DNA of 63,988 bases, the filler included, from Candidatus Woesearchaeota archaeon (lineage in GTDB: Archaea; Nanobdellota; Nanobdellia; Woesearchaeales; CAZJJJ01), in the NCBI GenBank assembly GCA_046538795.1. It is 6 parts of 6 records of this genome, joined end to end, with 100 filler letters (N's around TTAATTAATTAA, not from the genome) between each part and the next. Parts side by side here need not be neighbours in the genome. Positions count along the whole stretch, not along the records: positions 51,003 to 58,188 come from JBKHIF010000067.1; 5 more parts are not named here. One strand, given 5' to 3'. Made by a program: the position numbers and the translations under genes. The notes beneath the pieces were generated by a model. The model did not search any database. It was given only the letters and a program-made list of their open reading frames with translations, and was not told the origin of the DNA. This document shows positions 9,559 through 63,213 of the stretch, piece after piece; position 1 is the first letter of the stretch, and each line of letters begins with the position of its first letter.

Positions 9559-9600
9559 AAACATATTATTTTTTATTTTATTTTTAATTTCTCTTATTCT

Positions 9601-10089: not shown

Positions 10090-10092
10090 AAA

Positions 10093-10195: not shown

Positions 10196-10200
10196 AAAAA

Positions 10201-11565: not shown

Positions 11566-11731
11566 AAATATCCCCTCCTAAGTTATTCTTCTTTCATGGC
11601 AAAAGAAGGTTAATAAATAAATATTTCGCTTTTGCAAGGCGAATTTCATAATATTGATAGTAATAAGAAGAAAATAAGATAAGGTTCTGGTTGAAAAAAT
11701 ATATAAACCAAGCACACACATCAATAACAAC

Positions 11732-13054
11732 ATGCAGGAAATAATAGTTGGAAGATCAAAAAAGGATATAGAAAAGCACGGAAAAAAGGGCTGCATACTT
11801 CTTGGGAAGCAATATGTAAGAATGGGACAGACCACATCTCTATCTAATCCTATATATCTTGATGTTGCAGGAGCTCATGTTGTATTTATCTGCGGAAAAA
11901 GAGGCGGCGGAAAGTCTTACTCGATGGGAGTTATCGCCGAAGGCATGGCAGATTTAGAAGATGAAGTAAAGAGCAATCTATCATTTATCATGCTTGATAC
12001 CATGGGTATCTACTGGACAATGCGTTATCCGAATCATCAGGATGAAGAGCTTCTTAAACAATGGGATCTTACAGGAAAGGCTGTTGATATTGTTATCTAT
12101 ACACCGATAGGCTATCATAATATCTATAAAGAGCAAGGTATTCCTACAGACAAGCCATTTTCAATAAAACCTTCAGAACTTACTGCTGAAGACTGGTGCA
12201 TGACTTTTGAAATATCTATGATAGATCCAATAGGCATAGTCTTCACAAAGATTATAGATGATTTCATAGAAAATGGAATAACTGATTATGACATACCAGA
12301 TATGATGAAAGCAATAGAATCAGACCCTGATTTTGACACAGTCACAAAAGATGCTGCTATAAATCTTCTTACTTCCACCAAGCAATGGGGATTGTTCGGA
12401 AAAGAGGGGACTCCTCTTAAGGATCTGGCTGTCGGAGGACAGATAACAGTTCTTGATGTAAGTTGTTATGCGACAATGCCAAACGGATGGAAAGTAAAAG
12501 CGCTTGTCGTTGGTCTTGTTTCACAGAAACTTTTCTTAGAAAGGATGCGCGCAAGAAAAGGAGAAGAATTTTCACAGATAAGCTCTGCTGAGCATTATTT
12601 CACACAGGAAGTTGTTGAAAAGCAGGATTTTCCTCTTGTATGGCTTGTAATTGATGAAGCCCATGAATTTCTTCCTGTTAAAGGAAAAAATGCAGCAACA
12701 GAACCTCTTGTAACTATTATGAGAGAAGGAAGACAGCCTGGAATATCTCTCATACTTGCAACACAACAGCCAGGAAAGATACATACAGATGTCATGACAC
12801 AATCAGATACTGTGATAAGCCACAGGATTACTGCAAGGCTTGATACAGAAGCACTAGGTCTTTTAACTCAAAGCTACATGAAAGAAGGTCTTGTCCAGGC
12901 AATAGATAATCTTCCAAGAGTTAAAGGAGCAGGGGTTTTGTTTGATGATGCTAATGAAAGACTTTTTCCATTCAGGGTAAGGCCAAGATTCACATGGCAT
13001 GGCGGTGCATCACCAAATGCAATAAAAGATAAGAAAAATATTTTTGAATTCTGA
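11732..13054 (+). CDS. HerA/FtsK-like ATPase (DUF87-type)
   Basis: GKRGGGKS Walker A, IDEAH Walker B, REGR, ATQQP. Confidence 0.85.
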   Translation: MQEIIVGRSKKDIEKHGKKGCILLGKQYVRMGQTTSLSNPIYLDVAGAHVVFICGKRGGGKSYSMGVIAEGMADLEDEVKSNLSFIMLDTMGIYWTMRYPNHQDEELLKQWDLTGKAVDIVIYTPIGYHNIYKEQGIPTDKPFSIKPSELTAEDWCMTFEISMIDPIGIVFTKIIDDFIENGITDYDIPDMMKAIESDPDFDTVTKDAAINLLTSTKQWGLFGKEGTPLKDLAVGGQITVLDVSCYATMPNGWKVKALVVGLVSQKLFLERMRARKGEEFSQISSAEHYFTQEVVEKQDFPLVWLVIDEAHEFLPVKGKNAATEPLVTIMREGRQPGISLILATQQPGKIHTDVMTQSDTVISHRITARLDTEALGLLTQSYMKEGLVQAIDNLPRVKGAGVLFDDANERLFPFRVRPRFTWHGGASPNAIKDKKNIFEF

Positions 13055-13112
13055 TTACTTTCTCGACGAGAAAAAATGAAAATTTATAAATTACAGTTAA
13101 AGAGTCTGAATT

Positions 13113-13342
13113 ATGAATGACAACCTAATCTCTGTCGTAATTCCAGCATATAATGAAGAAAAATATATCAGCAGATGTCTTGATAGCCTCATTGAACAAA
13201 ATCATCCAAGCACTGAAGTTATAGTTGTTAATAATTTATCTTCAGATAAGACTTTTGAAATTGCATAATCATATTCAGGCAAACTAGATATAAACGTGAT
13301 TAAAGAGGGAACCTTGATGCAGATAGCATGAAAACGCGATAA
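13113..13342 (+). pseudogene. Glycosyltransferase family 2 remnant
   Basis: MNDNLISVVIPAYNEEKYISRCLDSL...EVIVVNNLSSDKT, then an in-frame TAA at 13266 and truncation. Confidence 0.8.
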
Positions 13343-13359
13343 TTATTGTGATTTGTAAA

Positions 13360-15000
13360 TTATTCTATCCATGTTTCTGCTGCATATGTCTTTACAATTA
13401 TATTCTCGCTTTTCCAGCAAGTGCTTTCAAAACCTCCTTTCTGGCAAAGTGATGTGAGAAATAGTTTTTTGTCAGGAATTGTTTCCCATACAGTCGGAAG
13501 ATATGTAGCTTCTTTCCATCCTCTTCTAAGGATCACTCCATCCACTCCCTGCTCTATTTTTTCAAGAAGCTCTTCTTCGGACTCATATTCAATAACTTCA
13601 GGAAGAGTCAGTTTAGATATTTGGATTTTAACCTCGTCAAGTTCATCTTCAGTCAAGGGATCAAATCTCATATCGCTTAATGCTGCATTTACTGCATTGC
13701 TCATCACGCATTCATAGAGCTTTGCATGCGGCATTATGCTTCCTATGCATCCTCTGAGATTTCCATCTTTTTCCAAAGTCACAAAACAGCCTCTTTTTTC
13801 TTTAAGGATGTCAGATATATTCTCTTCATCAGGAGATTCTGGCATAGTATCATCCAATGCAGATCTTATAGTATTTCTTGCAAGCCTTATAAGGAATTTC
13901 CGATCATCTCCTTTTATTTCATCAATATCCTGTTTTTTGCTGTTGTCTTTTTTCGGACCTACAAATACAAAAGATGCATATCCAACTACTGCATTAATAT
14001 CACCAGTCACATCTCCTGAATTCATATGATCAAGAAGAACTGGTTCCCAGGAGTTTTGTTCTGCAATCTTAAGGAGAGCCATTATAGGTTTAAGTCCGCA
14101 GGCTTCGCATCCGTAACATGCTTCTATATCCATGGCAAGTATGTTCTTTATGCAGTAATCATCAATCATATTTGCTGTATCATAAGGATAATAATGGCTT
14201 AGATCAGAGCTTGCTATTATAAGAGTTTCATCATCAATATATTTCCCAATTGCTTCTGAAAGTTCATCAATATTAACATCACCTACAACAATAGGTATTA
14301 TCCTTGCTTCAGGAAGCACTTTTTGTATGAACGGTATGTGAACCTCTACAGAATGCTCTTTGTCATGAGGAGATTGTTCTGAACTGAAGATTTCTTGTTC
14401 CTCAATCATGGTCAAAAGTTTAGGATGAAGTTCTGCTTCTCCTAAAGGAGTTTCATAATGAGATGCATTGAGTATAGATGCTTCCATGAAATATACATTA
14501 TGACTTGGCCCAAGAATAATGACTGTATCGTAGGTCTGATTTATCAGTATAGAATATGCTTTGGCTGCAACCTCTCCTGAATACATATAACCGGCGTGAG
14601 GAGCGATTATCGCCCTTATCGAACCATTTGTACTAAAGTTGTCATTATCTTTTCCAGCATAATTCAAAAGCTCATCCAAAACAGCTTCAAGATTACCTCT
14701 TGTTTTTGGATAGAATGTTCCTGCAATATTGCTTTTTTTGACTATTTTTTCAGGAAATTCTATCTCATCAAGGCCAGAAGAGATCTGGTCTTTCACTGAA
14801 GAATTAATTTTAACGAAGATTAGTATTACAAGGATGACTGAAAGTAATAGTATCAGGTATCTGTATGCCGAAGAAAAATTTTTAATATTTTTAAAAAATT
14901 TAGATTTCCTGAATGATTGTTTTTTTCCCAGGTTCCTCTTTTTGATGATTCTTCTTTTAACGGGTTTCATAATAACTTCAAAAAGAATAGCTACCTGCAA
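13360..15000 (-). CDS. AmmeMemoRadiSam protein B (Memo) fused to protein A (AMMECR1), with N-terminal TM
   Basis: AGTFYP, PHAGYMYSG, EHSVEV, ASSDLSHY, then GCFVTL and LRGCIG. Confidence 0.9.
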   Translation of the reverse strand: MQVAILFEVIMKPVKRRIIKKRNLGKKQSFRKSKFFKNIKNFSSAYRYLILLLSVILVILIFVKINSSVKDQISSGLDEIEFPEKIVKKSNIAGTFYPKTRGNLEAVLDELLNYAGKDNDNFSTNGSIRAIIAPHAGYMYSGEVAAKAYSILINQTYDTVIILGPSHNVYFMEASILNASHYETPLGEAELHPKLLTMIEEQEIFSSEQSPHDKEHSVEVHIPFIQKVLPEARIIPIVVGDVNIDELSEAIGKYIDDETLIIASSDLSHYYPYDTANMIDDYCIKNILAMDIEACYGCEACGLKPIMALLKIAEQNSWEPVLLDHMNSGDVTGDINAVVGYASFVFVGPKKDNSKKQDIDEIKGDDRKFLIRLARNTIRSALDDTMPESPDEENISDILKEKRGCFVTLEKDGNLRGCIGSIMPHAKLYECVMSNAVNAALSDMRFDPLTEDELDEVKIQISKLTLPEVIEYESEEELLEKIEQGVDGVILRRGWKEATYLPTVWETIPDKKLFLTSLCQKGGFESTCWKSENIIVKTYAAETWIE

Positions 15001-18469: not shown

Positions 18470-19633
18470 TCATAATAATTCGTTCTTTAATTCATCTGCA
18501 AGATCTGTATTTTCCCACGTGAAATCAGGATCATCTCTTCCGAAATGTCCGTATGCAGCTGTCTTTCTATATATGGGTCTCTTCAATTTAAGGACATCTA
18601 TGATATCATGGGGCTTTATAGGGAAATGCTTTCTTATAGCAGATGCTATTTTTTCTTCAGGAACCTTGTTTGTTCCGAAAGTACTTATATTTATTGAAAC
18701 TGGTTCTGAAACTCCGATAGCATATGCAAGCTGAACTTCACATTTGTCTGCAAGTCCTGCTGCCACTATATTTTTTGCAATATATCTTGCAGCATATGCA
18801 GCACTCCTGTCAACTTTGGATGGATCTTTCCCTGAAAACGCTCCGCCACCATGCTTTCCAAGACCTCCATATGTATCAACTATTATCTTTCTTCCTGTAA
18901 GACCTGCGTCTGCATAAGGACCGCCCCTTATGAATTCTCCTGTAGGATTTACATGATATGTAGTATTTTCATCTATCCACTCGCTGCACACAGGCTCAAT
19001 TACTTTTTTTATGATATCTTCTTTAATAGTTTCATAATTGACTCCTTCATCATGCTGGGTACTTATAACAATAGTATCTGCCCTAAGCGGTTTTCCATCG
19101 TCATCATATTCAATAGACACCTGGGATTTTCCGTCAGGCCTAAGATAGGTTATCTCATTATTTTTTCGTGCTTCAGCAAGCCTTTTAGTAAGCTTGTGGG
19201 CCAAAAGAATTGGAAGAGGCATAAGCTCTTTTGTCTCATTTGAAGCATAACCAAACATCATACCCTGGTCTCCTGCTCCCTGTTCCTTGTGAAGGCCTTC
19301 TCCTTCTGTAACACCTTGTGATATATCAGGAGACTGTTCTGTAACCTGGACCCAGACACTGCATGTTTCCCATTCTATGCCATGTTCTGATTTGGTATAT
19401 CCTATCTCTTTTATGGTTTCTCTCACTACTGTCGGAATATCAACATATCCTTTGGTGGTCATCTCACCAAATATCATCACTCCGCCATTTTTAGCTCCGG
19501 TCTCTATAGCAACCCTTGAATCAGGATCCTGCTTCAATGCCTCATCAAGTATAGCATCAGAAATTTTATCGCACATCTTGTCAGGATGACCTTCAGTTAC
19601 GCTTTCAGAAGTCAAAATTATCTTTTCTGTCAT
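18470..19633 (-). CDS. metK: S-adenosylmethionine synthetase, bacterial/eukaryotic type
   Basis: [39 protein letters not shown]. Confidence 0.96.
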
Positions 19634-19727
19634 TAATACCAACCTCACTTATATAATATATCAAGAAATCCCTGATTGTTATTTAAATATGTTGTTGAAA
19701 CAATTATTCATATTGGAATAAAATTCT

Positions 19728-23746: not shown

Positions 23747-25543
23747 TTATTCTTCTGAATCGCCATCTGATTCATCAACATCAAGGCTTCCCTGATTCTC
23801 CTCCTTGATCATCTTTACAATCTCTCTTACGATCTCATTTGCCTGCTTCATGTGTTCTCTTGCTCTCGCCATATATTGATTGGCTTCTTTTGCTAAGTCA
23901 TCTGTTTCTCCAGATGTCTTTGCTTCCATCCACTTTTTACCGGCAAGATCATAGTTCTCTTTTGCAAGGCTTATCATCTCGCTGAATTCAGAGAGTTTCT
24001 CATCTATAGAACTTGTATCTTTTCCTTTTTCTTCAAGGCCTGCAAGTATCTTTTCAAGTCTCATCTCGAGAGCTTCTGCTCTTGCAACAGTTCCTCTGAT
24101 CTTCTCATTTAAGACAACACCTGAGCCTCTCTTAAGTATTCTTTTCGCTTCTGGCCAGGATTCTTTCACTTTTGCAGCAGTATCTTTTATTTCCGAAACA
24201 GTCTCTGCATCTTCAAGAAGAGATTTTGATTCTTTCAAAGAGTCAATAACAGAATCAACTTCAGAAAGCATATCTTGTGCTTTTGTTTCATTAATCATTT
24301 CAGAAGATTCTATCTTTGCCTTTATCTTTTCAAGAGCATTCAAAAGACTGTCTGTTGTTCCAAGTAAAAATTCTTTTGATATGTTTATATGTTCATCGCA
24401 CATAGCCTGATCAGATTCTTCAGAAAAGCATTCTCTTATCTGTTCTCTATTTTGATTTATCTTCTGTTTTGAATTTACATATCTTTCACGTGCGTTCTGA
24501 AAATTATCTTTTGCATTCTCATAACGAAGTCTTGCATCTTCTAATTTATCTCTTGCAATCTCACGTCTCTTATAACCATTCTCGATCAATTCCTGCTTTT
24601 CTTCTACCTGAGACATGATCTTATCCTGAACTTCTTTTTTCTTAAGGTCTTCTGCACTATATTTATCAAGAACCTTTTTTGCTTCAGCACGACCAAGATC
24701 TATAATTTTTTCAAATTCTTCAGATTTAAGTTGAGCAATCTTTTTTGCTTTTTCTGAATCAAATTCCTTTAGTGCCCTAAGCTTATATGCTTCATTATCC
24801 TTAACCTGATTGTAAAGATTTGTTATTTTTCCCTTATTGTTCTCATCAAGTTCAGACCATCTTTCTCTAGCTGCATTTACAAGTCGTTTTCTTATGTTTT
24901 CTGAATTACCAAGCCTGTTTCCATTTTCATCATAGTTTGAATCATCTTTATCTTCACAAGGACACTCTCCTCTGCATTTAATTTTTGCACCTCTGCTATT
25001 TGCCAAACAATCATTGGAATAAGTTTTTCCGTCTTCTCCGCAAACAGGAGCATATTCCATAGTACATGCAACATCTGCATTTTCAATATTTTTATCTGAA
25101 TCTCCAGAAGCAGAATTTGCAACAAGGGCCCTAGGAACTTTTGGAGGAACAGACGTCATATCGCATTTCCTAAACTTTACAAGGTCCCCATTCTCTTTGT
25201 ACCATCCTTCTGAATCGGTATTTTCAGCTCTGCACATAATTATTTCTTCTTCAATACAATCAGCAAGAAACAAGAATTCTCCTGTAGATAAATCATAATA
25301 TCCTTTATTCCTGTCATCAGGATTCCTACAGATGGCTTTCTTTACAATATCTGATTTTTCTTCATTATCATCTGAATCATCTAAAGAATCAGATTTTTCT
25401 GTGCCATCTTCAGTTTTATCAATTGAATTTCCTGATACATCTGTAGCCATATTATCATCTTCTACTACTGCAATAACAGATACAGCAGATATAAACACCA
25501 CAAACATAACAAAAAAACTCAGCAGTTTTGCCTTATTTTTCAT
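23747..25543 (-). CDS. Secreted protein with Kazal-type domain and long coiled coil
   Basis: Signal peptide; CTMEYAPVCGEDGKTYSNDC...CRGEC; helical C-terminal region. Confidence 0.8.
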   Translation of the reverse strand: MKNKAKLLSFFVMFVVFISAVSVIAVVEDDNMATDVSGNSIDKTEDGTEKSDSLDDSDDNEEKSDIVKKAICRNPDDRNKGYYDLSTGEFLFLADCIEEEIIMCRAENTDSEGWYKENGDLVKFRKCDMTSVPPKVPRALVANSASGDSDKNIENADVACTMEYAPVCGEDGKTYSNDCLANSRGAKIKCRGECPCEDKDDSNYDENGNRLGNSENIRKRLVNAARERWSELDENNKGKITNLYNQVKDNEAYKLRALKEFDSEKAKKIAQLKSEEFEKIIDLGRAEAKKVLDKYSAEDLKKKEVQDKIMSQVEEKQELIENGYKRREIARDKLEDARLRYENAKDNFQNARERYVNSKQKINQNREQIRECFSEESDQAMCDEHINISKEFLLGTTDSLLNALEKIKAKIESSEMINETKAQDMLSEVDSVIDSLKESKSLLEDAETVSEIKDTAAKVKESWPEAKRILKRGSGVVLNEKIRGTVARAEALEMRLEKILAGLEEKGKDTSSIDEKLSEFSEMISLAKENYDLAGKKWMEAKTSGETDDLAKEANQYMARAREHMKQANEIVREIVKMIKEENQGSLDVDESDGDSEE

Positions 25544-36206: not shown

Positions 36207-36306
36207 NNNNNNNNNNNNNNNNNNNNNNNNNNNNNNNNNNNNNNNNNNNNTTAATTAATTAANNNNNNNNNNNNNNNNNNNNNNNNNNNNNNNNNNNNNN
36301 NNNNNN
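36207..36306. other. Assembly spacer
   Basis: N run with TTAATTAATTAA. Confidence 0.99.
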
Positions 36307-43579: not shown

Positions 43580-43679
43580 NNNNNNNNNNNNNNNNNNNNN
43601 NNNNNNNNNNNNNNNNNNNNNNNTTAATTAATTAANNNNNNNNNNNNNNNNNNNNNNNNNNNNNNNNNNNNNNNNNNNN
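43580..43679. other. Assembly spacer
   Basis: N run with TTAATTAATTAA. Confidence 0.99.
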
Positions 43680-50191: not shown

Positions 50192-50311
50192 GCCGATGTA
50201 GTTTAGTTGGTTAGAGCACCAGACTCATAAGAATGAGTGAAGAGGCATTTTTGCCAATGACTAAAAATCTGGGTGATCTGGAAGTCGAGGGTTCAAGTCC
50301 CTCCATCGGCA
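50192..50311 (+). tRNA. tRNA-Met(CAT), probably elongator, with a 46-nt canonical intron (50230-50275)
   Basis: GCCGATG/CATCGGC acceptor, CCAGA/TCTGG anticodon stem, GTTCAAG T-loop; BHB with CTCA/TGGG helix and TAA/TGA bulges. Confidence 0.9.
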
Positions 50312-50902: not shown

Positions 50903-51002
50903 NNNNNNNNNNNNNNNNNNNNNNNNNNNNNNNNNNNNNNNNNNNNTTAATTAATTAANNNNNNNNNNNNNNNNNNNNNNNNNNNNNNNNNNNNNNNNNN
51001 NN
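50903..51002. other. Assembly spacer
   Basis: N run with TTAATTAATTAA. Confidence 0.99.
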
Positions 51003-51538
51003 TAGCGGTAGCTTTGTCGAATTGTCGTCGACAGAATAACAAGTTATATAAATCATCAAAGTCGTACTAATGTCTTAATGAAAGTTCATAATCTTAGTGG
51101 CTGACTAGCTGTAATATAATTATGGGCAAGGTAGGGTTTCCTTTTTACAAAGCAAATGTTAGCTTTCGAAAGAGGGAATCCTTGTAAATATAAATTGCAG
51201 AATTTTCTACCTTCCTTACCATATTGGCTGCCAATATCGCTCCTTACTGAATTCGCTTCAATTTGATTGCCTTGTTCAAATAATCGTTTTATGTTCAAAT
51301 AAACGTTTTATATAAATTGATGTTTCAAATAGGTTGCGAGTCGTCGGTTTCAAGTATTTTAAAAATCTATCAACAGTACCATCAGATATATTTGTGGATG
51401 TAAATTTAATTATTCTTTGGTAAAAATCATAGTCGTAAAAATTAACCAATAATTTACATTTGATTTGATCAGACCACCAGCAGTTTTAACAACTTGAACT
51501 ACCTTACTTATAAATCTCCAGAAAATGTGGTGAAGGCA

Positions 51539-51892
51539 TTATTTTACTTTACGACGTGATTTTAAATCTATAAGATGTTCTGAAAAACTCGCAATGTTTT
51601 TCTTGATAAATACTTTAGACCCCGTCATAATACCCCCTAATCGATCAACTCGTATTTCATCACCATCTTTTGCAATTTCACGTTCATCATTTGAAGAATA
51701 TGGTATAAATTCATCTTCATCAAGCTTATTGTTTATATCTGATAATATTGATGCAAATTGATCCTTAGATACTAAAAAATTGATTTCACTATGACTATCA
51801 ATAACAGAACCAAAATCCGCCTTGTCAAAAGAAAACTCGCATTTCATATTAATTGAATTGTTTGTAACCTGTATATGTTTTTTCATTAACAA
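51539..51892 (-). CDS. Hypothetical protein
   Basis: 117-aa ORF immediately downstream of SRP54. Confidence 0.45.
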   Translation of the reverse strand: MLMKKHIQVTNNSINMKCEFSFDKADFGSVIDSHSEINFLVSKDQFASILSDINNKLDEDEFIPYSSNDEREIAKDGDEIRVDRLGGIMTGSKVFIKKNIASFSEHLIDLKSRRKVK

Positions 51893-51907
51893 AAAATAAT
51901 TTCGATA

Positions 51908-53287
51908 TCAGAATCCTTTAAAGCCTTTCATCATGCCAGGCATTTTCTTTCCGCCGAACTTTCTCATCATCTTGTTCATGTCAGCGTTCTCTAAGTCCTG
52001 GCCCTTAAACATCTTCATCATCTTCTTTGATGTCCTGTACTGTTTTACAAGTTCACGAACTTCCTGAACCTTTGTTCCTGAGCCTTTTGCGATCCTCTCT
52101 GCTCTGGAAGAATCTATGCTTTCAGGATCCTCAAGTTCATGTTTTGTGCAGGAGTTCATTATGAATTTCCATTTCTTGAGCTTTTCTTCCTGAACATCAA
52201 GCGCTTCTTTAGGAAGTTTCAGCTGACCCATTCCAGGAATCATCTCGATTAGTTTTCTCATGGAACCCATCTTTTTCATGGCTTCCATCTGCTCATAAAG
52301 ATCAATAAGATTGTATTCTCCAGAAAGGAATTTTTTTCCAAGGTCTTTTGCATCTTCTTCAGATATAGCTACCTGAGCCTTGTCAAGAAGCGATTCTATA
52401 TCACCCATCCCAAGTATTCGTCCAACAAATCCTTTAGGATTAAAAGGCTCAAGGTCATCTACTTTTTCTCCGACTCCTATGAACTTGACTTTTGCCCCTG
52501 TGACAGAACATGCTGCCAAGACACCGCCGCCTTTTGCAGTTCCTTCAAGTTTTGTTACGATAACTCCTGTAACGCCCACAGTATCGTGGAATGCAGTTGC
52601 CTGCCTTTCTGCGGTCTGACCTATGTCTCCTGAGATGACAAGTAGTTTTTCATCAGCCTGCACAACCTTGTGCATCTTGTCTAACTCTTCTATAAGATCT
52701 TCAGAAAGAGCATCGCGTCCTGCTGTGTCGATTATCACAACATCATATTCATTAAGCTCTGCTTCAAATTCTTTGTATATCTTAACAGGATCTTTTTCTT
52801 CTGGTTTTCCAAATACTGCAACTTCGATCTGCTTTCCCAGCTGTTTTAACTGGTTGAAAGCAGCAGGTCTCCAGGTATCTGTTGAGATTAATGCAACCTT
52901 TTTACCTCTTGTCCTGAAATATTTTCCAAGCTTTCCGGCAGTTGTCGTCTTTCCAGAACCAAAGAGTCCTACAAGCATGATTTTTGTAGGCTTTTTATCA
53001 AGATTTATCTTTTCAGCCTCTCCGCCCAAGAAATTCACAAGCTCGTCATAGACGATCTTTATCAGATGCTCTTTTTTGGAAAGTCCAGGAGGAGTTTTTT
53101 CATTCTTTATCCTTGATTTGATGTGATTAGAAAGTTCCAGCACTAGTTTTACATTTACATCAGACTGCAAAAGTGCTCTTTGTATGTCTTTTACAAGCTC
53201 GTTTATCAGCTTATCATCTACAAAAAGCGCAGATGTAATCTTATTCAGCGTGCCTTTCAGGCTTTCTCCAAGCTTATCTAGTACCAT
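51908..53287 (-). CDS. srp54: Signal recognition particle protein SRP54 (archaeal type)
   Basis: IQRALLQSDVNV, GLFGSGKTT, DTAGR, TKLEGTAKGGG, Met-rich M domain. Confidence 0.96.
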   Translation of the reverse strand: MVLDKLGESLKGTLNKITSALFVDDKLINELVKDIQRALLQSDVNVKLVLELSNHIKSRIKNEKTPPGLSKKEHLIKIVYDELVNFLGGEAEKINLDKKPTKIMLVGLFGSGKTTTAGKLGKYFRTRGKKVALISTDTWRPAAFNQLKQLGKQIEVAVFGKPEEKDPVKIYKEFEAELNEYDVVIIDTAGRDALSEDLIEELDKMHKVVQADEKLLVISGDIGQTAERQATAFHDTVGVTGVIVTKLEGTAKGGGVLAACSVTGAKVKFIGVGEKVDDLEPFNPKGFVGRILGMGDIESLLDKAQVAISEEDAKDLGKKFLSGEYNLIDLYEQMEAMKKMGSMRKLIEMIPGMGQLKLPKEALDVQEEKLKKWKFIMNSCTKHELEDPESIDSSRAERIAKGSGTKVQEVRELVKQYRTSKKMMKMFKGQDLENADMNKMMRKFGGKKMPGMMKGFKGF

Positions 53288-53480
53288 TTTCAAATAATTT
53301 GAACAGCATTACCATGCCAAGTCCTGATTATATAGCCCAGAAAAGGGATTTGTTTATAAATTTTCTCCTATAACACCCCAATATAAGCATAATTTTATAA
53401 AAAAAGGCTTGTAAACAAAAATCCTATGAATTTCTCATCAATAAGACCAAAAAAGTATAATTTAAGATCAAAACATCAAG

Positions 53481-54413
53481 ATGGCAGGAAAAAAAACCAA
53501 ACAAAAAGAACAGACGTATTTAAAGAGTGAGCCAGTGGATAATCTAGATATCGTAAGATTCCTGATCAAGCAGTCAGATCGTTATGAACTTATTTCAGAT
53601 AAAGAAGAGTTTGACAGGTTGTACAGGCTTCAGAAGAGTACAGGTTCAGATATTGAAAAATCGCGGCTCATCTGCCCGAACATAAGATTTATAACCGGCT
53701 ATGCTGCAAGTGTAAAAAACAGATATAATCTAAAGCACCTAAAAATAGAAGATCTTGTACAAGAGGGCATTTTAGGTCTTCTTAAAGCATATGATAAGTA
53801 TGATCCTGAAGCAAAAGGATCAAACGGAGAAAAAGTAAAATTTCTAAGCTATGCCGGACACTGGATCAAGCAAAGCATCGCAAGAGCTATATACAATAAA
53901 GATAGAGCAATTCGACTTTCAATAGACAGACAAAGAAAAATAGGCAGAATATTTTCTTCTGAGTCAGAGCTTGAAGAAAAACTTAAAAGAAAACCTACCA
54001 AAAACGAGCTAGCAGAAAAAATAGGTGTTGATATAACCTATATTTCCAAGATATATAATGATGGAATGCATACTATATCTCTTGACACACCCCTGGGAGA
54101 TGATTATGATTCTGAAAGCATAATAGATTACGTAGAAAGCCATTATGAAGATCCGACAGAAAACGTCCATATAAATTCTCCTGTAGAGTATATAATCAAA
54201 AACGCAGACCTGAACGAAAGAGACAAAGACATAATGAGACTCAGGCTTTTTCAAGATTACACATTAGAAGAAATAGGAATAAATTACGGCCTTACAAGAG
54301 AAAGGATTAGACAAATTGAACAAAGAGCATTTTCAAAGATAAAGCAGTTTATCGAACAGAAAGAAAAGGATGATTCTATCCACGAACTGCTCAAAAAATA
54401 TATGCCAAAATAG
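53481..54413 (+). CDS. Sigma-70 family RNA polymerase sigma factor, RpoD-like (copy 1)
   Basis: EDLVQEGILGLLKAYDKYD, KFLSYAGHWIKQSIARAI, ISLDTPLGDD, TLEEIG...LTRERIRQIE. Confidence 0.92.
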   Translation: MAGKKTKQKEQTYLKSEPVDNLDIVRFLIKQSDRYELISDKEEFDRLYRLQKSTGSDIEKSRLICPNIRFITGYAASVKNRYNLKHLKIEDLVQEGILGLLKAYDKYDPEAKGSNGEKVKFLSYAGHWIKQSIARAIYNKDRAIRLSIDRQRKIGRIFSSESELEEKLKRKPTKNELAEKIGVDITYISKIYNDGMHTISLDTPLGDDYDSESIIDYVESHYEDPTENVHINSPVEYIIKNADLNERDKDIMRLRLFQDYTLEEIGINYGLTRERIRQIEQRAFSKIKQFIEQKEKDDSIHELLKKYMPK

Positions 54414-54462
54414 GAAAGATATAAAAAAAGAACCTGATAAACATGCATGTTTCAAAACCAAA

Positions 54463-55371
54463 ATGAAAAAAATAAAAACAACAGATAACGTTGACATCAT
54501 GGAACTTGCACTTAAGGATTGCAAAAGGCTTCCTTTGATAAAAGATAAAAAAGAGTTTGATGAGCTTTACATGCTCGAAAGAAAAACAGATGATTCAGAA
54601 ATAAAAGAAATGCTAAGAAACAAGCTCATAATTCCAAACGGAAGATATGTTGCATCTGTTGCTGAAAAGACATTCAAAAAATCACGTTTAAGCACACTCA
54701 CTCAAGAAGATTTATTTCAATTAGGAATGATTGGATTATGCAAAGCTTATGAGAAATATAATCCAAAAAAGAAAGCCAAATTTCTTACTTATGCAAACTG
54801 GTGGGTTCGCCAGGAAATAATGAGAGGCATATATGAAAGAGACAGAAATGTCTATATAACATCAAAAGGGTTTTCCAACCTCATAAAAATAATCAATGCA
54901 GAATCAGAACTTGAAATGGAGCTTGAAAGGCAACCAAAAGCAAAAGAAATTGCCTTATTAATAGGAATGAACCCTGAGGAAGTGGAAAGATTAATGAGTC
55001 TTTCAAACGATACATCATCTCTTGATTCACCTATATATGAAAACGGCGATGTTATTGATGATATTGTTGACGTCATGGAAGGAGACTATAACAGAGGTCA
55101 TGTTCAATTTGATGAAATCCCTCCTGTTGAAGATATGGTTAAAAAATCAGGAATACCAGATAGAGAAAAACAGATTATCAAAGAGATATTCTATGATGGA
55201 ATGACCTTGAAAGAATCAGCAGAAATTCATGGTTTGACAAAAGAAAGAATAAGACAACTCAAAGAACACGCGCTTTATGAAATAAGGGAGTTTGCTTTTG
55301 AAAATAAGAAAAAATCAGAGATGCATCTTGATGAAAGAAGCAGACAGAAACTATCTCAAATATTATATTAA
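54463..55371 (+). CDS. Sigma-70 family RNA polymerase sigma factor, RpoD-like (copy 2)
   Basis: EDLFQLGMIGLCKAYEKY, KFLTYANWWVRQEIMRGI, SLDSP, TLKE...LTKERIRQ. Confidence 0.9.
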   Translation: MKKIKTTDNVDIMELALKDCKRLPLIKDKKEFDELYMLERKTDDSEIKEMLRNKLIIPNGRYVASVAEKTFKKSRLSTLTQEDLFQLGMIGLCKAYEKYNPKKKAKFLTYANWWVRQEIMRGIYERDRNVYITSKGFSNLIKIINAESELEMELERQPKAKEIALLIGMNPEEVERLMSLSNDTSSLDSPIYENGDVIDDIVDVMEGDYNRGHVQFDEIPPVEDMVKKSGIPDREKQIIKEIFYDGMTLKESAEIHGLTKERIRQLKEHALYEIREFAFENKKKSEMHLDERSRQKLSQILY

Positions 55372-55384
55372 AAAAATAAAAAAT

Positions 55385-57313
55385 TTAAAGTTTCTTTTCA
55401 TTAATCTCGATCAATATCCTTTTCAGGAATGCATCAATTTTCTGAGTACCTTCAACATTATTGTCTCTTGTTCTCACAGAAACAGTTCCTTCAGATTCTT
55501 CATTGTCGCCGACAACCAGGATGTAATTAAACTGCTCAAGCTGAGCATTCCTGACTTTCTTTGGTATTGATTCAGAGCGTGAGTCAACTTCCACCATGAT
55601 GTCGTTTTTCTTGAAATCATCTGCGATTTTTTCAGCATAAGGCTCATGCCTGTCTGCAACAGTAAGTATCTTTACCTGATTTGGAGATATCCACAGAGGG
55701 AACTTTCCTGCAAAATGCTCGACAAGTATGCCAAAAAATCGTTCAAGGCTTCCATATACGACCCTGTGAAGGATAAATGGCGTGTGCTTTTTTCCATCTT
55801 TTCCTTCATAGGTTATGTCAAACCTTGAAGGAAGGTTGAAATCAAGCTGTATTGTAGAACATTGCCATTCACGTCCCAAAGCGTCTCTTATCTGCACATC
55901 AAGGCTAGGCCCATAAAATTTTGCCTCGCCTTCCATCATCTCGCAGTCAAGATTAAGTTTTTTCAGGGCATTTAGTATAGCACCCTGAGCCCAGTCCCAA
56001 TCCTTATCTGTTCCAAGGTACTTGTCTTTTTTCTTTTCTCCCCTGATTGAGAGAGTGAATTTGTATTCCTTAAAGCCAAAGACCTCATACATCTCTTTTA
56101 TGAGTTTAACTATATCAATTATCTCATCCTCAAGCTGCTCATCAGAACAAAATATGTGCGCATCATCCTGAGTGAAAGATCTTACTCTGAAAAGCCCGTT
56201 AAGGACTCCTGAAAGCTCATGCCTGTGCACATGCCCAAGCTCTCCTACACGAAGCGGAAGCTCTCTGTATGAATGTATGGTTTCCTTGTAAACAAGCATT
56301 CCTCCAGGACAATTCATAGGCTTTATCGCAAAATCTTTTTCATCGATCTTTGTAGTGTACATATTGTCTTTGTATAGTTTCCAGTGTCCTGAAGTCTCCC
56401 AAAGCTCTCTTCCCAATACCATAGGAGTCTTTATTTCCTGGTACCCTCTTGCATAATGCTTTTTTCTCCAGAAATCTATAAGCCTGTTAAGGATGACCAT
56501 GCCTTTGTGATGGAAAAACGGAAATCCAGGCCCTTCTTCATGAAAACTAAATAAGTCAAGCTCTTTTCCTATTTTCTTGTGGTCGCGCTTTTCAGCTTCT
56601 TCCATGACCTTAAGGTATTCTTTCAAAAGCTTCTTGTCAGGAAACGAAATACCATATACGCGCTGGAGCTGCTTATTTTTTGCATCACCTTTCCAGTATG
56701 CGCCTGCAAGCTTTGTGAGCTTGAATGCCTTTATGTATTTGGTGCTGGGCACATGAGGACCTCTGCACGGATCGATGAAATCATTGTTTTTGTAAAGAGA
56801 TATGGTCTCTCCTTCAGGAAATTCTTTTATCATCTCAACCTTATAGGTCTCGTTTCTTTTCTTCATCTCTTTAATAGCTTCATCTCTTGAAACCTCAAGT
56901 CTTTCAAAAGGAATGTCAGAATGGACAATATCCTTCATCTTCTCCTCGATCTTTTTGAGATCTTCAGGAGTAAAATTTTCCTTGACATCAAAATCATAAT
57001 AGAATCCTTCTTCCACAGCAGGACCTATGGTAAGCTTTGTCTCAGGATAAAGATCTTTTACCGCCATTGCAAGAACATGCGCAGAAGAATGCCTGAATAA
57101 ATCGACACCCTCTTTATCGTGAAATGTAAGTATCCTTATCTTAGAATCTGTAGTAATGGGAGTTGTAAGGTCTGTTGCCTTGTCGTTCACAACAATTGCC
57201 AGTGCAGCTCTTCCCAAACCCTCTGAGATATCCTTTGCAATATCAAGCCCGGTTATCCCTTTCTCATGTTCTTTTTTTGATCCGTCCGGATACTCTATTT
57301 TTATTTTTGCCAT
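55385..57313 (-). CDS. thrS: Threonine--tRNA ligase, bacterial type
   Basis: TGS domain, HSSAH, CRGPH, KPMNCP, HRHELSG..GLFRVR. Confidence 0.96.
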   Translation of the reverse strand: MAKIKIEYPDGSKKEHEKGITGLDIAKDISEGLGRAALAIVVNDKATDLTTPITTDSKIRILTFHDKEGVDLFRHSSAHVLAMAVKDLYPETKLTIGPAVEEGFYYDFDVKENFTPEDLKKIEEKMKDIVHSDIPFERLEVSRDEAIKEMKKRNETYKVEMIKEFPEGETISLYKNNDFIDPCRGPHVPSTKYIKAFKLTKLAGAYWKGDAKNKQLQRVYGISFPDKKLLKEYLKVMEEAEKRDHKKIGKELDLFSFHEEGPGFPFFHHKGMVILNRLIDFWRKKHYARGYQEIKTPMVLGRELWETSGHWKLYKDNMYTTKIDEKDFAIKPMNCPGGMLVYKETIHSYRELPLRVGELGHVHRHELSGVLNGLFRVRSFTQDDAHIFCSDEQLEDEIIDIVKLIKEMYEVFGFKEYKFTLSIRGEKKKDKYLGTDKDWDWAQGAILNALKKLNLDCEMMEGEAKFYGPSLDVQIRDALGREWQCSTIQLDFNLPSRFDITYEGKDGKKHTPFILHRVVYGSLERFFGILVEHFAGKFPLWISPNQVKILTVADRHEPYAEKIADDFKKNDIMVEVDSRSESIPKKVRNAQLEQFNYILVVGDNEESEGTVSVRTRDNNVEGTQKIDAFLKRILIEINEKKL

Positions 57314-58188: not shown

Positions 58189-58288
58189 NNNNNNNNNNNN
58201 NNNNNNNNNNNNNNNNNNNNNNNNNNNNNNNNTTAATTAATTAANNNNNNNNNNNNNNNNNNNNNNNNNNNNNNNNNNNNNNNNNNNN
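58189..58288. other. Assembly spacer
   Basis: N run with TTAATTAATTAA. Confidence 0.99.
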
Positions 58289-61290: not shown

Positions 61291-62739
61291 CTAGCCCTTT
61301 ATTACTCCTATAGGTTTAAGTCTTGCAACAAGTTTTGCAAGTCCTGCCTTATCACTTACCTTTACCACTTCATCAACATCTTTGTAGACCTGTGGTGCTT
61401 CTTCAGATATTCCTTTTAAACTTCTTGCTTTAAGATGGATATTATTTTTTGCAAGATCATCTTTTATCTTTTCTGCGTTGAAACTTTTTATGGCCTTGAA
61501 TCTTGACATTACCCGTCCTGCTCCGTGAGCAGTTGAACCAAAGGAAATCTTCATAGATTCTTCTGTTCCAACAAGTACATACGATGATGTTCCCATGCTT
61601 CCTGGGATTAAGACTGGTTGTCCGTAATCCTTGTATACTTCAGGGATATCTTCATGTCCTTTAGGAAATGCTCTTGTCGCTCCTTTCCTATGTACGATAA
61701 GCTTTTTTTTCTTTCCGGAAACATGATGCTCTTCGATCTTAGCGATATTATGTGCAACATCATACACTGTCTTTATATCTTCATCTTTTAGGTTGAACAC
61801 TTCTTTGAACGCTTTTCTTACATTGTGTGCTATGATGTGCCTGTTTGTCCACGCAAAATTTGCTGCTGCTGCCATCGCAGAAAGATAATCATTAAAGATA
61901 TCACTTCCTGAAGGCGCATAAACAAGATCTTTTTCAGGGAGTTTTTCTATTAGATCAGGATATGTTTCTTCCATACGTTTTATGTAATCAGAGCAGACCT
62001 GATGTCCTAGTCCTCTTGAACCGCAATGTATCATTGCTGTAACATCTCCTGTTTTTTTCAGATTGAAATTTTTCGAAGTTTCTTCATCATAAATTTCATC
62101 GATGAACTGTATTTCAAGAAAATGATTTCCAGCACCAAGTGTTCCAAGCTGTTTTCGTCCTCTTGCTTTTGCTCTTGGAGTTATTTTTGAAGGATCTGCA
62201 CCTTTCATTGCACCATTTTCTTCGCAATGTACTAAATCATCTTCATTACCATAACCATTTTCAACAGCCCACCTTGCGCCTTTTTTCAAAACTTCGTCTG
62301 TTTCTTCATCACTTAAGCGAATGTCTGATTCTTTTCCTACACCACAAGGCACATATTCAAATATTTTTTCAAGAAGTTCATCTATTTTTTTTTCAACATC
62401 TTCTTTTTTTATATTTATTGAAAGAAGCCTAACACCACAATTTATATCAAAACCAATACCGCCTGGAGAAATACAACCATTATTGTAATCAATCCCTGCA
62501 ACGCCGCCTATGCTGAAACCATAACCCTGGTGTGCATCAGGCATCATTATTGAAGCACTGCAAATTCCTGGCAAAGAAGAAACATTTATTCCTTGTTGTA
62601 TAGATTTGTCGTTTTTTATTGCATCCATTATCTTTTTGTTTGCAAATATTTTTACAGGAACATTCATGTTTCCTTTCTTTTTTATCTTATATTCATAATC
62701 TGAAACTTTTATGATTTCTTTATCTGTCATCTTGTTCAC
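61291..62739 (-). CDS. rtcB: tRNA-splicing ligase RtcB
   Basis: PDAHQGYG, DINCG, GNHFLE, HRKGAT, HGAGR. Confidence 0.96.
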   Translation of the reverse strand: MNKMTDKEIIKVSDYEYKIKKKGNMNVPVKIFANKKIMDAIKNDKSIQQGINVSSLPGICSASIMMPDAHQGYGFSIGGVAGIDYNNGCISPGGIGFDINCGVRLLSINIKKEDVEKKIDELLEKIFEYVPCGVGKESDIRLSDEETDEVLKKGARWAVENGYGNEDDLVHCEENGAMKGADPSKITPRAKARGRKQLGTLGAGNHFLEIQFIDEIYDEETSKNFNLKKTGDVTAMIHCGSRGLGHQVCSDYIKRMEETYPDLIEKLPEKDLVYAPSGSDIFNDYLSAMAAAANFAWTNRHIIAHNVRKAFKEVFNLKDEDIKTVYDVAHNIAKIEEHHVSGKKKKLIVHRKGATRAFPKGHEDIPEVYKDYGQPVLIPGSMGTSSYVLVGTEESMKISFGSTAHGAGRVMSRFKAIKSFNAEKIKDDLAKNNIHLKARSLKGISEEAPQVYKDVDEVVKVSDKAGLAKLVARLKPIGVIKG

Positions 62740-62760
62740 CTTGATTGTGATTTGATCAAG

Positions 62761-63213
62761 TTATACATCAACAACAATGTCTGCGGTATAACCAGATCTT
62801 TTTTTTTCAATCTTCATTTCATGTCTTGTTATGGATTTTATATCTCCAGAAAAGTCATAATTACCAGCTTTGTCTCCAAGTATGTTTGCTTCAAGCCGAA
62901 ATTTGCTATTTTCTTTTTGTTCATCTGTTTCTTCTATAATCCTTACAAAATTCACTCTTGAAAGTATGAAATTTTCAGTATCCATAAGAAAGATATATTC
63001 TTCTAGAAAATCATAAAGGAGTATCTCTATCTTTGGAGCTTCTTTCATGATTGTTTTTTCTTCTTTTTCTTTTACTTCAGAAGGGTTTATTAAAACTTCT
63101 GCCTGAGCCAAAAGACAGTTTGTGAAAAGTTCGTTTAGATCATTTCCATATGCCCTGAATTTGATGTCAGCAGTATGGCTTAAGAATTCATATGAACCTT
63201 TTTTTGACTTCAT
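62761..63213 (-). CDS. Archease
   Basis: HTAD, IKSIT.H, terminal VDV; adjacent to rtcB. Confidence 0.92.
   Translation of the reverse strand: MKSKKGSYEFLSHTADIKFRAYGNDLNELFTNCLLAQAEVLINPSEVKEKEEKTIMKEAPKIEILLYDFLEEYIFLMDTENFILSRVNFVRIIEETDEQKENSKFRLEANILGDKAGNYDFSGDIKSITRHEMKIEKKRSGYTADIVVDV

Follow-up and report, generated by a model that had tools for sequence, protein, structure and literature searches.

We are highly confident that a Woesearchaeota-type DPANN archaeon (genome G000) encodes, in a variable slot between SRP54 and thrS, two intact sigma-70 genes (copy 1 and copy 2, here sig1 and sig2) that resemble groups 1/2, lack region 1.1 and derive from an old tandem duplication. The pair is accessory and fast-evolving, and represents one instance of a known DPANN sigma-70 family. 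That the two proteins still serve an RNA polymerase as sigma-like factors for initiation or specificity, rather than acting as free DNA binders, is a serious possibility that falls somewhat short of an even chance. Sigma factors on one side and TBP/TFB on the other mark the textbook divide between bacterial and archaeal/eukaryotic initiation.

Two sigma genes on an archaeal contig

The window, that is, the whole 63,988-base stretch of DNA that was analysed, joins six of the 97 contigs of G000, with N runs as joints. An initial annotation of this DNA placed the pair on one gap-free contig, which is correct for C54 and does not extend to the rest of the window (Table 1). Its description of two intact, adjacent ORFs, with SRP54 divergent and thrS convergent to them, agrees with our analysis: both frames are fully open and of family-typical length, and the stops of sig2 and thrS lie 13 bp apart. 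The longest ORF of sig2 (54370–55371, 333 aa) would overlap sig1 by 44 nt; the start listed in Table 1 is the most likely one, because the likeness to sig1 begins there and the called gene P0121 corresponds to the 302-aa form.

Table 1. Contig C54 and the features of its sigma locus, in window positions
Feature	Position	Strand	Remarks
Contig C54	51003..58188	n/a	7,186 bp; sole contiguous sequence around the sigma pair; N spacers at both ends
SRP54	51908..53287	-	archaeal signal recognition particle GTPase; likely start ATG 53287, 459 aa; Pfam SRP54_N, SRP54, SRP_SPB; called gene P0241, 459 aa
BRE/TATA-like element of sig1	53449..53465	+	A-run then GTATAATTTAA; -32 to -16 from ATG
sig1	53481..54413	+	310 aa; r2 53721-53906, r3 53940-54161, r4 54207-54344
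TATA-like box	54420..54429	+	TATAAAAAAA; 43 nt upstream of sig2 start 54463; sequence inspection
sig2	54463..55371	+	302 aa; r2 54643-54840, r3 54880-55050, r4 55153-55290
thrS (threonyl-tRNA synthetase)	55385..57313	-	bacterial-type TGS-SAD-core-anticodon; start 57313; Pfam, TIGR00418 716.5 bits

Genome-wide, the upstream profile of G000 is A-rich from -37 to -33 and TATA-like from -31 to -24, and a TATA-like hexamer starts between -31 and -28 in 377 of 1096 crudely called genes. The TATA box in the BRE/TATA promoter of thrS occupies this usual position (-30 to -21), while the BRE/TATA-like element of sig1 is situated about 5 nt nearer the ATG. The TATAAAAAAA box could serve as sig2's own promoter with a short leader, or sig2 could be co-transcribed with sig1.

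One reading makes C54 a mis-binned or chimeric bacterial contig. Its length (only 7.2 kb) leaves room for this reading, as do the position of the window's classical archaeal markers (ribosomal, Nop5 and fibrillarin genes) on other contigs, the bacterial architecture of thrS, and an SRP54 whose score is higher with the bacterial Ffh model than with the eukaryotic one. Yet the Ffh score of 444.8 bits is below the cut-off of 473.2, and SRP54 is single-copy in G000 (the sole other match is 33% identical), has a match in each of the 21 genomes compared (G000 and 20 relatives) and is 59–72% identical to its full-length matches in relatives of the order. Every name among its best 120 database matches is that of a Woesearchaeota or Nanoarchaeota archaeon, and one protein of 85% identity (P0242) lies on a 227 kb contig. 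Orthologues of thrS, 56% identical, are likewise found near SRP54 in two relatives, G016 and G019. SRP54 and thrS are thus the lineage's own genes. The tetranucleotide distance of C54 to the genome mean ranks at 0.51 among the 82 contigs of at least 5 kb. The initial annotation had left the junctions on either side of the pair to be confirmed, and both are bridged by single Logan contigs in each of two runs from two studies, one of which may be the source sample: record 3 of X1 spans 51189–56375 with 3 differences, and record 8 of X2 spans 51003–55774 with 1 difference. None of the public runs listed as containing the locus is an RNA run. Furthermore, sigma genes also occur in one-contig and few-contig genomes of relatives. 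Taken with the archaeal thrS promoter, these observations identify C54 as an archaeal contig; mis-binning or chimerism is refuted as far as these data allow, and we give it a negligible probability.

Domain content, duplication and distribution

Both proteins match the Pfam models for sigma-70 regions 2, 3 and 4, with all six scores above the cut-offs of 24–25 bits: PF04542 (35.8 bits for sig1, 43.4 for sig2), PF04539 (42.0 and 48.9) and PF04545 (60.3 and 43.3). In whole-genome controls PF04542, with a cut-off of 24, matched all 10 bacteria and none of the 4 archaea. The NCBIfam model TIGR02937 is also exceeded (82.4 and 79.0 bits against 42.9), making sig1 and sig2 genuine sigma-70 family genes, like those of groups 1/2 (RpoD/RpoS). 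The proposal that they carry all RpoD-type regions, and the profile check suggested for it, held for regions 2, 3 and 4 only. Region 1.2 (PF00140) had no match in either copy, nor did region 1.1 (PF03979), as anticipated for the latter, even at E≤1 on the N-termini, of which 56–60 residues were searched for region 1.2; the 1.2-like part of the proteins is recognised by alignment only. The equivalog cut-offs were missed by more than 200 bits (RpoD_Cterm, 151.9 and 112.9 against 354; rpoS_proteo, 150.1 and 118.3 against 378.7). The closest solved chains to sig1 are SigA structures (8gzg_F, 8x6f_E, 7ckq_F), with 5ipl_F as an RpoS example. The pair has regions 2, 3 and 4 in common with bacterial group 1/2 sigmas (SigA/RpoD, RpoS), but differs from them in an identity of only 25–36%, in the missed equivalog cut-offs, in the undetected regions 1.1 and 1.2, and in residing in a genome with no bacterial core polymerase.

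The two copies are 34% identical over 292 aa (E 3e-54) and form sister branches with an SH-aLRT of 99 in a tree of 89 rows. The local duplication that had been postulated from motifs common to both copies (LI.DK.EFD.LY.L, I.PN.R and ESELE, all present) is therefore an old tandem one. With an end branch of 1.79 compared with 0.66 for sig1, sig2 is by this tree the faster-evolving copy. The backbone is poorly fixed, with 37 of 85 inner branches open and 13 changes needed for the archaeal label, so that the tree as it stands backs neither one nor many transfers into archaea. Close relatives of the pair were scarce: among 5.8 billion proteins the best non-self matches of sig1 are 34–39% identical, and the best for sig2 is 34%. 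Searches for closer orthologues returned only three bacterial loci (26–29% identical) from the genome-contig collection, no relative among the viral contigs of IMG/VR, and 17 loci of at most 31% identity from metagenome contigs, save one 49-residue fragment at 39%.

Beyond the pair, G000 has two further sigma genes, both with a region 1.2 match. One of these two is located among archaeal markers on a contig of 34 kb, where its neighbours include DTD2, OapB, OapC and a YGR210-type GTPase, and the copy on C18 has PIN, Fic and nucleotidyltransferase genes nearby. Extra DNA-binding-like tails occur in the C35 copy and in some relatives; in the C35 tail only sub-threshold sigma region 4 hits were obtained (E 0.0095–0.016), and we rejected its interpretation as extra region 4 repeats. 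Sigma70_r2 is present in 18 of 41 genomes (G000 and 40 relatives), including the one-contig genome G022, and of 301 genomes from the order, 74 have a sig1-like gene (69 of 296 without five unpublished genomes); sigma genes of some relatives have a region 1.1 match, and in several the genes are tandemly amplified. Within the same family, the sig1 query matched none of three genomes and Pfam r2 one of six, and no sigma gene stands beside SRP54 on the contigs examined of G003–G006. In G019 the space between SRP54 and thrS is taken by TrmB-type and winged-helix regulators; a 227-aa ORF between the two genes in G016 was considered as a decayed sigma gene and found no Pfam support. Among 153 ORFs within ~1.5 kb flanks of 34 sigma loci (31 in relatives and the three of G000), only sigma genes recur in three or more loci. 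The sigma genes are accordingly dispensable and accessory.

Such a distribution is also what relics of gene transfer, drifting to loss with no current function, might leave behind. The scarcity of orthologues (none above 39% identity in any collection searched), the lack of sigma genes in most same-family genomes, the long branch of sig2 with its loss of E407 and R584, and the unusual spacing of the sig1 BRE/TATA-like element are all in keeping with decay, but the two open, full-length frames with three domains above cut-off are not. GC, GC3 and the synonymous-codon score of the genes fall inside the range of G000, and this match of codon usage and GC indicates that they are long resident. Moreover, most key residues are kept in both copies after an old duplication, and the pair contains one position at which the two Logan assemblies disagree. 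We regard the relic reading as distinctly unlikely.

A related reading derives the pair from DPANN viruses or proviruses, or gives it a role in virus-host conflict in place of host regulation. According to a 2025 report (PMC12647753), two viral genomes of DPANN archaea, one a prophage, contain rpoS-like genes; these, like phage sigmas, are sigma-70 family members outside a bacterial chromosome. Patchiness, fast evolution, tandem amplification in several relatives and the PIN, Fic and nucleotidyltransferase neighbours of the C18 copy would fit mobile cargo or a weapon. However, a Pfam profile search revealed no integrase, capsid or other viral gene on C54 (the initial annotation had likewise seen no integrase), the neighbours are housekeeping genes, and composition equals that of the host genome. 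Phage and DPANN-virus sigmas are no closer to the pair than bacterial sigmas are: the best phage match, rpoD of Microcystis phage MaAM05, is 34% identical, and IMG/VR holds no relative. A mobile-element origin or role is, in our judgement, very unlikely.

Rinke et al. reportedly described sigma factors in archaea in 2013. Our locus combines sigma-70 domains with a contig that is archaeal by its co-encoded informative genes, which places it among the DPANN sigma-70 genes. The novelty implied at the outset did not survive comparison with Castelle et al. 2021 (Front Microbiol, PMC8204110), who already describe a K03086-like sigma-70 family, fam00359, whose members have a median length of 280 aa. 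It is commonest in Woesearchaeota (39% of 196) and occurs in 38% each of 90 Pacearchaeota and 37 Aenigmarchaeota; the locus is a further case. Mis-binning is excluded in that work, an anti-sigma factor was not found, and the archaea have TBP, TFB and TFE. Our counts of bacterial-type sigma-70 genes in DPANN genomes (18/41 and 74/301) agree with this account. What distinguishes the present locus from fam00359 at large is the particular tandem pair, its place in the SRP54-thrS slot and the lack of any orthologue above 39% identity, and the sections of PMC8204110 consulted give no locus, residue-level or polymerase-docking analysis of the family.

One archaeal polymerase and a predicted clamp contact

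G000 is 97.6% complete and contains a single match each for Rpb2_6 and Rpb1_1, which follow the archaeal B-A' gene order on C17, together with one TFB, one TBP and no alpha-CTD match. This extends to the whole genome what had been seen in the window, that no bacterial rpo gene is visible; no bacterial-type core RNA polymerase accompanies the pair in G000. Consistent with this, five closed or nearly closed sigma-bearing relatives have one Rpb1_1 match each and no alpha-CTD match. The cell's sole polymerase is thus archaeal and is accompanied by TBP and TFB. A scan for sigma-70 promoters (TTGACA-N16-18-TATAAT) upstream of 1195 crudely called G000 genes, itself crude in using the consensus only and our own ORF calls, gave no excess: 6 regions at ≤1 mismatch against a shuffle mean of 7.6, 81 at ≤2 mismatches against 83.8 (72 for the reverse complement), and 517 at ≤3 mismatches against 525. 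Nor did G000 yield an anti-sigma or partner-switching system, as STAS had no match and HATPase_c_2 stayed sub-threshold at 26.4 bits; a SpoIIE/PP2C gene is found 2.4 kb away from the sigma gene of C18, with no complete partner-switching module.

The roles of individual residues in core binding, melting and -10/-35 reading are established in the sigma-70 literature. We numbered residues according to E. coli sigma-70 (RpoD) by alignment and compared 38 archaeal sigmas of the same order, whose overall identity is ~30%. The core-binding residues D403, E407 and G408 are each kept in 36 of 38. F427 is found in 35, the melting residues Y430, W433 and W434 in 36, 29 and 34, and Q437 and R441 follow with 34 and 30. 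In region 4.2, E585, R586 and R588 are kept in 34 each and Q589 in 33. Of the residues compared, sig1 retains D403, Q406, E407, G408, F427, Y430, W434, Q437, R441, R584, E585, R586, R588 and Q589 and departs only at N409I, W433H and T440A, while sig2 departs at E407L, N409M, T440M and R584K. The motifs quoted in the initial annotation are present in the translations (DLVQEGILGL, YAGHW and TRERIRQIE in sig1; DLFQLGMIGL, YANWW and TKERIRQLK in sig2), and the melting dyad is indeed WW in sig2 and HW in sig1, which matches E. coli sigma-70 across TRERIRQIE. Judged from the alignment, then, the residues that serve to bind the core, melt DNA and read -10/-35 elements are conserved, including the group 1/2 region 2.2 motif, Y430/W434, Q437/R441 and the region 4.2 recognition helix.

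These residues bear on a different use of the sigma scaffold, which comprises several helix-turn-helix units and could have been recruited as a stand-alone DNA-binding regulator that binds promoter-like DNA without polymerase contact and represses or activates TBP/TFB promoters. Bacterial-type helix-turn-helix regulators are common in archaeal genomes, and region 1.1, absent here, is an autoinhibitor of free DNA binding. The intact region 4.2 recognition residues would suit such a regulator, as would the accessory and patchy genes, the missing promoter excess, the regulators in the same slot of G019, and the extra tails of some relatives and of the C35 copy (in the latter, sub-threshold hits). 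In contrast, D403, E407, G408, Y430, W433 and W434 persist in 29–36 of the 38 sigmas despite their divergence, and a protein that simply bound double-stranded DNA would have no evident need of core-binding and melting residues; a region 3.2 sigma finger is recognisable in sig1, and the structure model described below sets region 2.2 on the clamp coiled coil. We therefore consider a stand-alone regulator somewhat unlikely.

The same retention of all determinants for bacterial core binding and -10/-35 reading would also suit effectors that pass into the cells of a bacterial partner and redirect the RNA polymerase there. Against this, the initial annotation noted no signal peptide (by eye, without a predictor), and the window and flanks contain no secretion or transfer apparatus; a near-housekeeping-type sigma would probably compete poorly and reprogram little. 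To our knowledge, the known DPANN hosts are archaea. An effector role strikes us as highly improbable.

If the pair instead acts on the cell's own polymerase, as we tentatively favour, the most likely contact would be between the helices of regions 2.1–2.2 and the clamp coiled coil of Rpo1N (A'), at its tip, the universally conserved site at which sigma region 2 sits on bacterial beta'. Archaeal TFE and Spt5 bind this tip. Regions 2.3/2.4 and 4.2 may then read -10-like and -35-like DNA at a small promoter set, or the outcome may be modulation of TBP/TFB-driven initiation. A co-fold of Rpo1N 1–420 with sig1 15–150 scored 0.66, against 0.00 for the best of three controls; of 157 solved complexes 116 attain this mark, and of 215 mismatched pairs 2 do, counts that hold only roughly here because our own alignments were used. 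Runs agreed in at least 81% of contacts, with a partner pLDDT of at least 76, and the predicted interface joins Rpo1N 262–288 (the coiled-coil tip) to sig1 residues 94–105 (region 2.2), 57–65 (region 2.1) and 22–31. This pass expresses likeness, not binding, and may arise because the model reproduces the many bacterial holoenzymes whose structures are solved. The archaeal coiled coil matches E. coli beta' 264–309 at 14 of 46 positions, and beta' R275, E295 and A302, which we take to be important for sigma-70 binding, correspond to I262, L282 and H289 and are not conserved. The coiled coil shows no variation among the 24 genomes compared (G000 and 23 relatives), whether or not they have sigma genes, and the polymerase thus bears no sign of adaptation to them. 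Also counting against a sigma-like role are the lack of a promoter excess, the dispensability of the genes, the want of a conserved partner gene or of STAS and HATPase_c_2 matches above cut-off, and, for sig2, the missing E407 and long branch. With the modelled interface included, the evidence leans to the clamp-binding reading.

Implications for initiation in DPANN archaea

In several DPANN lineages, between a quarter and 40% of the members retain intact sigma genes and lack a bacterial polymerase. Why they do so is made more testable, not answered, by this locus: archaeal copies that differ widely conserve the core-binding and melting residues, neither an anti-sigma partner nor an excess of sigma-70-type promoters is present, the structure model names a candidate contact between sigma region 2.2 and Rpo1N 262–288, and sig1 with E407 and sig2 without it provide two natural variants for binding assays. 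In a hybrid form of initiation, which we consider unlikely, woesearchaeal sigmas would dock by region 2.2 on the Rpo1N coiled coil, compete with or replace TFE/Spt5, and melt or select a promoter subset. If so, a bacterial specificity factor would be at work on an archaeal, Pol II-like enzyme, and the tandem duplicates would be promoter-class paralogues, like the alternative sigmas of bacteria.

Genomic setting and archaeal origin of the pair

The ten N runs of the window make up five spacers between contigs of the source genome G000 (97 contigs, 1.34 Mb, 97.6% complete, 1.6% contamination), and gene neighborhoods therefore cannot be read across them. The initial annotation placed the sigma pair on one gap-free contig, which holds for C54 (51003-58188, only 7,186 bp), whereas the window as a whole is six contigs rather than one stretch of chromosome. 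Because the window's clear archaeal markers (L31e, S19e, Nop5, fibrillarin, RtcB, and archease) all lie off C54, we tested the archaeal nature of this contig separately. Elsewhere in the window, the archaeal contig C50 carries bacterial- or eukaryote-flavored genes, and a 120-nt tRNA probably holds an intron, judging from its length only, which would fit the presence of RtcB and archease.

Coordinates of the features discussed (window positions unless a locus is named)
Feature	Position	Strand	Remarks
N spacers	7476-7575, 36207-36306, 43580-43679, 50903-51002, 58189-58288		join C49, C50, C52, C53, C54, C69
SurA-like PPIase chaperone	10201-11565	-	C50
Bacterial-type S-adenosylmethionine synthetase (MetK)	18470-19648	-	C50
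598-aa protein, Kazal protease-inhibitor domain	23747-25543	-	C50
tRNA, 120 nt	50192-50311	+	Rfam RF00005, 60.2 bits; missed by ARAGORN
SRP54	51908-53287	-	C54
Sigma copy 1, ORF	53481-54413	+	310 aa
Sigma copy 2, longest ORF	54370-55371	+	333 aa
thrS	55385-57313	-	C54
RtcB and archease	61291-63213
C18 sigma	L010:3602-4447 (G000:C18)	+	281 aa; r1.2, r2, r4
SpoIIE/PP2C-type phosphatase gene	L010:437-1195	-	2.4 kb from C18 sigma
C35 sigma	L012:13171-14661 (G000:C35)	-	496 aa; r1.2, r2, r3, r4 and ~230-aa tail
G016 slot	L078 (G016:C8) 8693-9895		1.3 kb; unrelated small ORFs
G019 slot	L076 (G019:C10) 9613-13913		4.9 kb; secreted coiled-coil protein, TrmB-type and winged-helix regulators
G008 sigma	L072 (G008:C29) 8522-9319		different gene, 265 aa, directly upstream of SRP54

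The SRP54 gene of C54 is the sole SRP54 of G000, the other match (33% identity) being an FtsY-type paralogue. SRP54 is matched in 21 of 21 genomes (G000 and 20 relatives), with full-length proteins 59–72% identical and same-family genomes at the top; of the 4,990 relatives in the database, the top 120 were inspected, and wherever a source names one, the name is "Candidatus Woesearchaeota archaeon" or "Nanoarchaeota archaeon"; the score of 444.8 bits falls below the bacterial Ffh cut-off of 473.2 bits, bearing out the archaeal assignment made initially. The thrS gene has a bacterial architecture, and its orthologues in the relatives G016 and G019, which share 56% identity with it, are also close to SRP54. 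Both sigma genes lie within the G000 distribution for GC, GC3, and synonymous-codon score (percentile ranks 0.17–0.91), while the tetranucleotide distance of C54 ranks at 0.51 among 82 contigs.

Promoters of G000 are sharply marked, with an A-rich BRE spanning -37 to -33 and a TATA element spanning -31 to -24, counted from the ATG; a TATA-like hexamer starts at -31 to -28 in 377 of 1096 crudely called genes, which suggests that mRNAs are largely leaderless. On C54, thrS has its TATA box at this usual position, copy 1 has a BRE/TATA-like element (AAAAAAGTATAATTTAA) at -32 to -16, ~5 nt off it, and copy 2 has a TATA-like box at -43. Transcription of the pair is plausible, and the public runs listed include none of RNA. 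In each of two public runs, which belong to different studies, one contig covers the order hyp-SRP54-sigma1-sigma2 into thrS with 1–3 differences; since one run may equal the source sample, this bridging amounts to one independent assembly at the least. Given SRP54, thrS, composition, the thrS promoter, and the junction-spanning contigs, we rejected a chimeric or mis-binned C54, and an artefact is extremely improbable.

The observation is thus real and its archaeal setting genuine, but the phenomenon to which the pair belongs is already in the literature. Sigma factors in archaea were reportedly mentioned by Rinke and colleagues in 2013. Castelle et al. (2021, PMC8204110) describe sigma-70 genes (fam00359) in DPANN genomes as especially prevalent in Woesearchaeota, rule out mis-binning, found no anti-sigma factors, and call the mechanism unclear; their Table S3 gives frequencies of 39% of 196 Woesearchaeota, 38% of 90 Pacearchaeota, 38% of 37 Aenigmarchaeota, 16% of 25 Diapherotrites, and 15% of 13 Micrarchaeota. 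A 2025 paper (PMC12647753) reports two DPANN viral genomes with rpoS-like genes.

Two diverged copies in a variable slot

Both ORFs are intact, adjacent, and above Pfam cut-offs for sigma-70 regions 2, 3, and 4 (35.8, 42.0, and 60.3 bits in copy 1; 43.4, 48.9, and 43.3 bits in copy 2), and all motifs quoted in the initial annotation recur in the translations and pairwise alignment. Its claim of a full RpoD-type set including a 1.2-like region stands for regions 2, 3, and 4, but region 1.2 gave no Pfam match even at E≤1 on the N-terminal 56–60 residues of either copy; the label "1.2-like" is owed only to N-terminal alignment with RpoS-type models. Region 1.1 is absent from both by Pfam, as had been stated. 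For copy 2, the most probable start is an in-frame ATG at 54463 (302 aa), because similarity to copy 1 begins there and the protein on record has this form, leaving a 49-bp spacer between the copies instead of a 44-nt overlap.

The two proteins are 34% identical over 292 residues (E 3e-54). In a tree of 89 rows (39 archaeal, including four of G000; 45 database matches; E. coli RpoD, RpoS, RpoH, and FliA; and one phage RpoD; unpublished genomes account for four further loci, which are omitted), they are sisters on a long stem (SH-aLRT 99), which upholds the proposed local duplication. End branches of 1.79 for copy 2 and 0.66 for copy 1 fit an old tandem duplication with copy 2 changing faster. 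With 37 of its 85 forks open, the tree does not resolve the backbone, and the number of transfers into archaea is therefore not countable.

Sigma70_r2 matches occur in 18 of 41 genomes (G000 and 40 relatives), in 10 of 10 control bacteria, and in 0 of 4 control archaea. Across 301 genomes of the order, 74 hold protein relatives of copy 1 (69 of 296 without the unpublished G188, G118, G138, G249, and G214), as do 59 of the 222 that are ≥90% complete and ≤5% contaminated. None of the 301 holds a close orthologue, the best archaeal match being 37% identical; among 5.8 billion proteins, the best matches reach 34–39% for copy 1 and 34% for copy 2. Relatives also carry tandem sigma genes, three each in G045:C3 and G198:C6 and pairs in G173:C42, G078:C8, G083:C31, G177:C24, and G038:C7; the tree joins the pairs of G045 and G078 as sisters but not those of G038 and G189. 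Among the relatives' sigmas are primary-sigma-like proteins of 450–740 aa (L028 in G101:C21, L029 in G045:C3, L013 in G020:C67, L033, and L035) that have region 1.1, a long insertion separating regions 1.2 and 2, or both. The G101 sigma groups tightly with E. coli RpoD (SH-aLRT 99, short branches); contamination with a foreign contig or recent transfer might account for it.

The SRP54-thrS neighborhood is a variable slot in the order, holding other genes in G016 and G019 and a different sigma gene in G008, and no sigma gene lies beside SRP54 on the contigs examined of the same-family genomes G003-G006. Phage matches to the pair reach 34% identity at most, IMG/VR holds no relative, and metagenome contigs stay at ≤31% save for one 49-residue fragment at 39%. 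A mobile-element or conflict function is quite unlikely.

Conserved residues and the polymerase clamp

We aligned 38 archaeal sigmas to E. coli RpoD (four of G000 and 34 others of the order, the G101 copy omitted), taking the roles of positions from the sigma-70 literature. Overall identity is ~30%, yet key positions are retained: core-binding D403, E407, and G408 of region 2.2 (36/38 each); melting residues F427 (35/38), Y430 (36/38), W433 (29/38), and W434 (34/38); -10 readers Q437 (34/38) and R441 (30/38); and -35 readers E585, R586, R588 (34/38 each), and Q589 (33/38). Copy 1 departs only at N409I, W433H, and T440A, and copy 2 at E407L, N409M, T440M, and R584K. The retention of polymerase-binding and strand-opening residues is best understood if the proteins continue to act on a polymerase; set against this retention, with the faster-changing copy 2 on the other side, the idea that the genes are relics of gene transfer is unlikely.

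As initially noted, no bacterial rpo gene is present: the whole of G000 has one RNA polymerase B gene and one A' gene, adjacent on C17; TFB and TBP occur once each, and the bacterial alpha C-terminal domain finds no match. In five sigma-bearing relatives whose genomes are closed or nearly so (1–7 contigs), A' is again single and alpha-CTD missing. A role as effectors on a bacterial partner is very unlikely.

G000 has four sigma-70 genes, the pair and copies on C18 and C35. The C35 copy, on a 34-kb contig, is flanked by genes for a YGR210-type GTPase and for a PHP protein and lies near OapB, OapC, archaeal D-aminoacyl-tRNA deacylase (DTD2), and ribosomal protein S2; its tail has only sub-threshold region 4-like matches (E 0.0095–0.016). 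The C18 contig also carries PIN, Fic, and nucleotidyltransferase genes, but G000 yielded no partner of the STAS or RsbW type.

Because key residues are kept and the archaeal polymerase is the only one in the cell, we co-folded residues 1–420 of its A' subunit, Rpo1N (alignment of 24 rows), with residues 15–150 of copy 1 (42 rows). The complex scored 0.66, whereas none of three controls scored above 0.00, with contact agreement of at least 81% between runs and partner pLDDT of at least 76. Of 157 solved complexes, 116 attain the co-fold mark, as do 2 of 215 mismatched pairs, counts that are rough where own alignments are used. In the model, the clamp coiled-coil tip (Rpo1N 262–288) faces region 2.2 (94–105), region 2.1 (57–65), and an N-terminal helix (22–31) of copy 1, a predicted interface with canonical holoenzyme geometry. 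The pass may stem from the model's memory of bacterial holoenzymes, and would then indicate likeness, not binding.

Of the mechanisms weighed, a sigma-like action of the pair on the archaeal polymerase by way of its clamp coiled coil ranks first, though we hold it only tentatively as possible. Several results count against this reading. The coiled coil shares no more than 14 of 46 positions with E. coli beta', with R275, E295, and A302, which are important for sigma-70 binding, replaced by I, L, and H, and is invariant in 24 of 24 genomes (G000 and 23 relatives) with or without sigma genes. Sigma-70 consensus promoters are not in excess upstream of G000 genes, no conserved neighbor or anti-sigma module of the sigma genes was found, and the genes are dispensable at the family level. 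The shifted BRE/TATA-like element of copy 1 is a further point against. A role as stand-alone DNA-binding regulators is somewhat unlikely. For sigma-like action at the clamp, the predicted contact between Rpo1N and sigma and the natural E407 difference between the copies would be useful leads, and may make the function of DPANN sigma factors a testable question.
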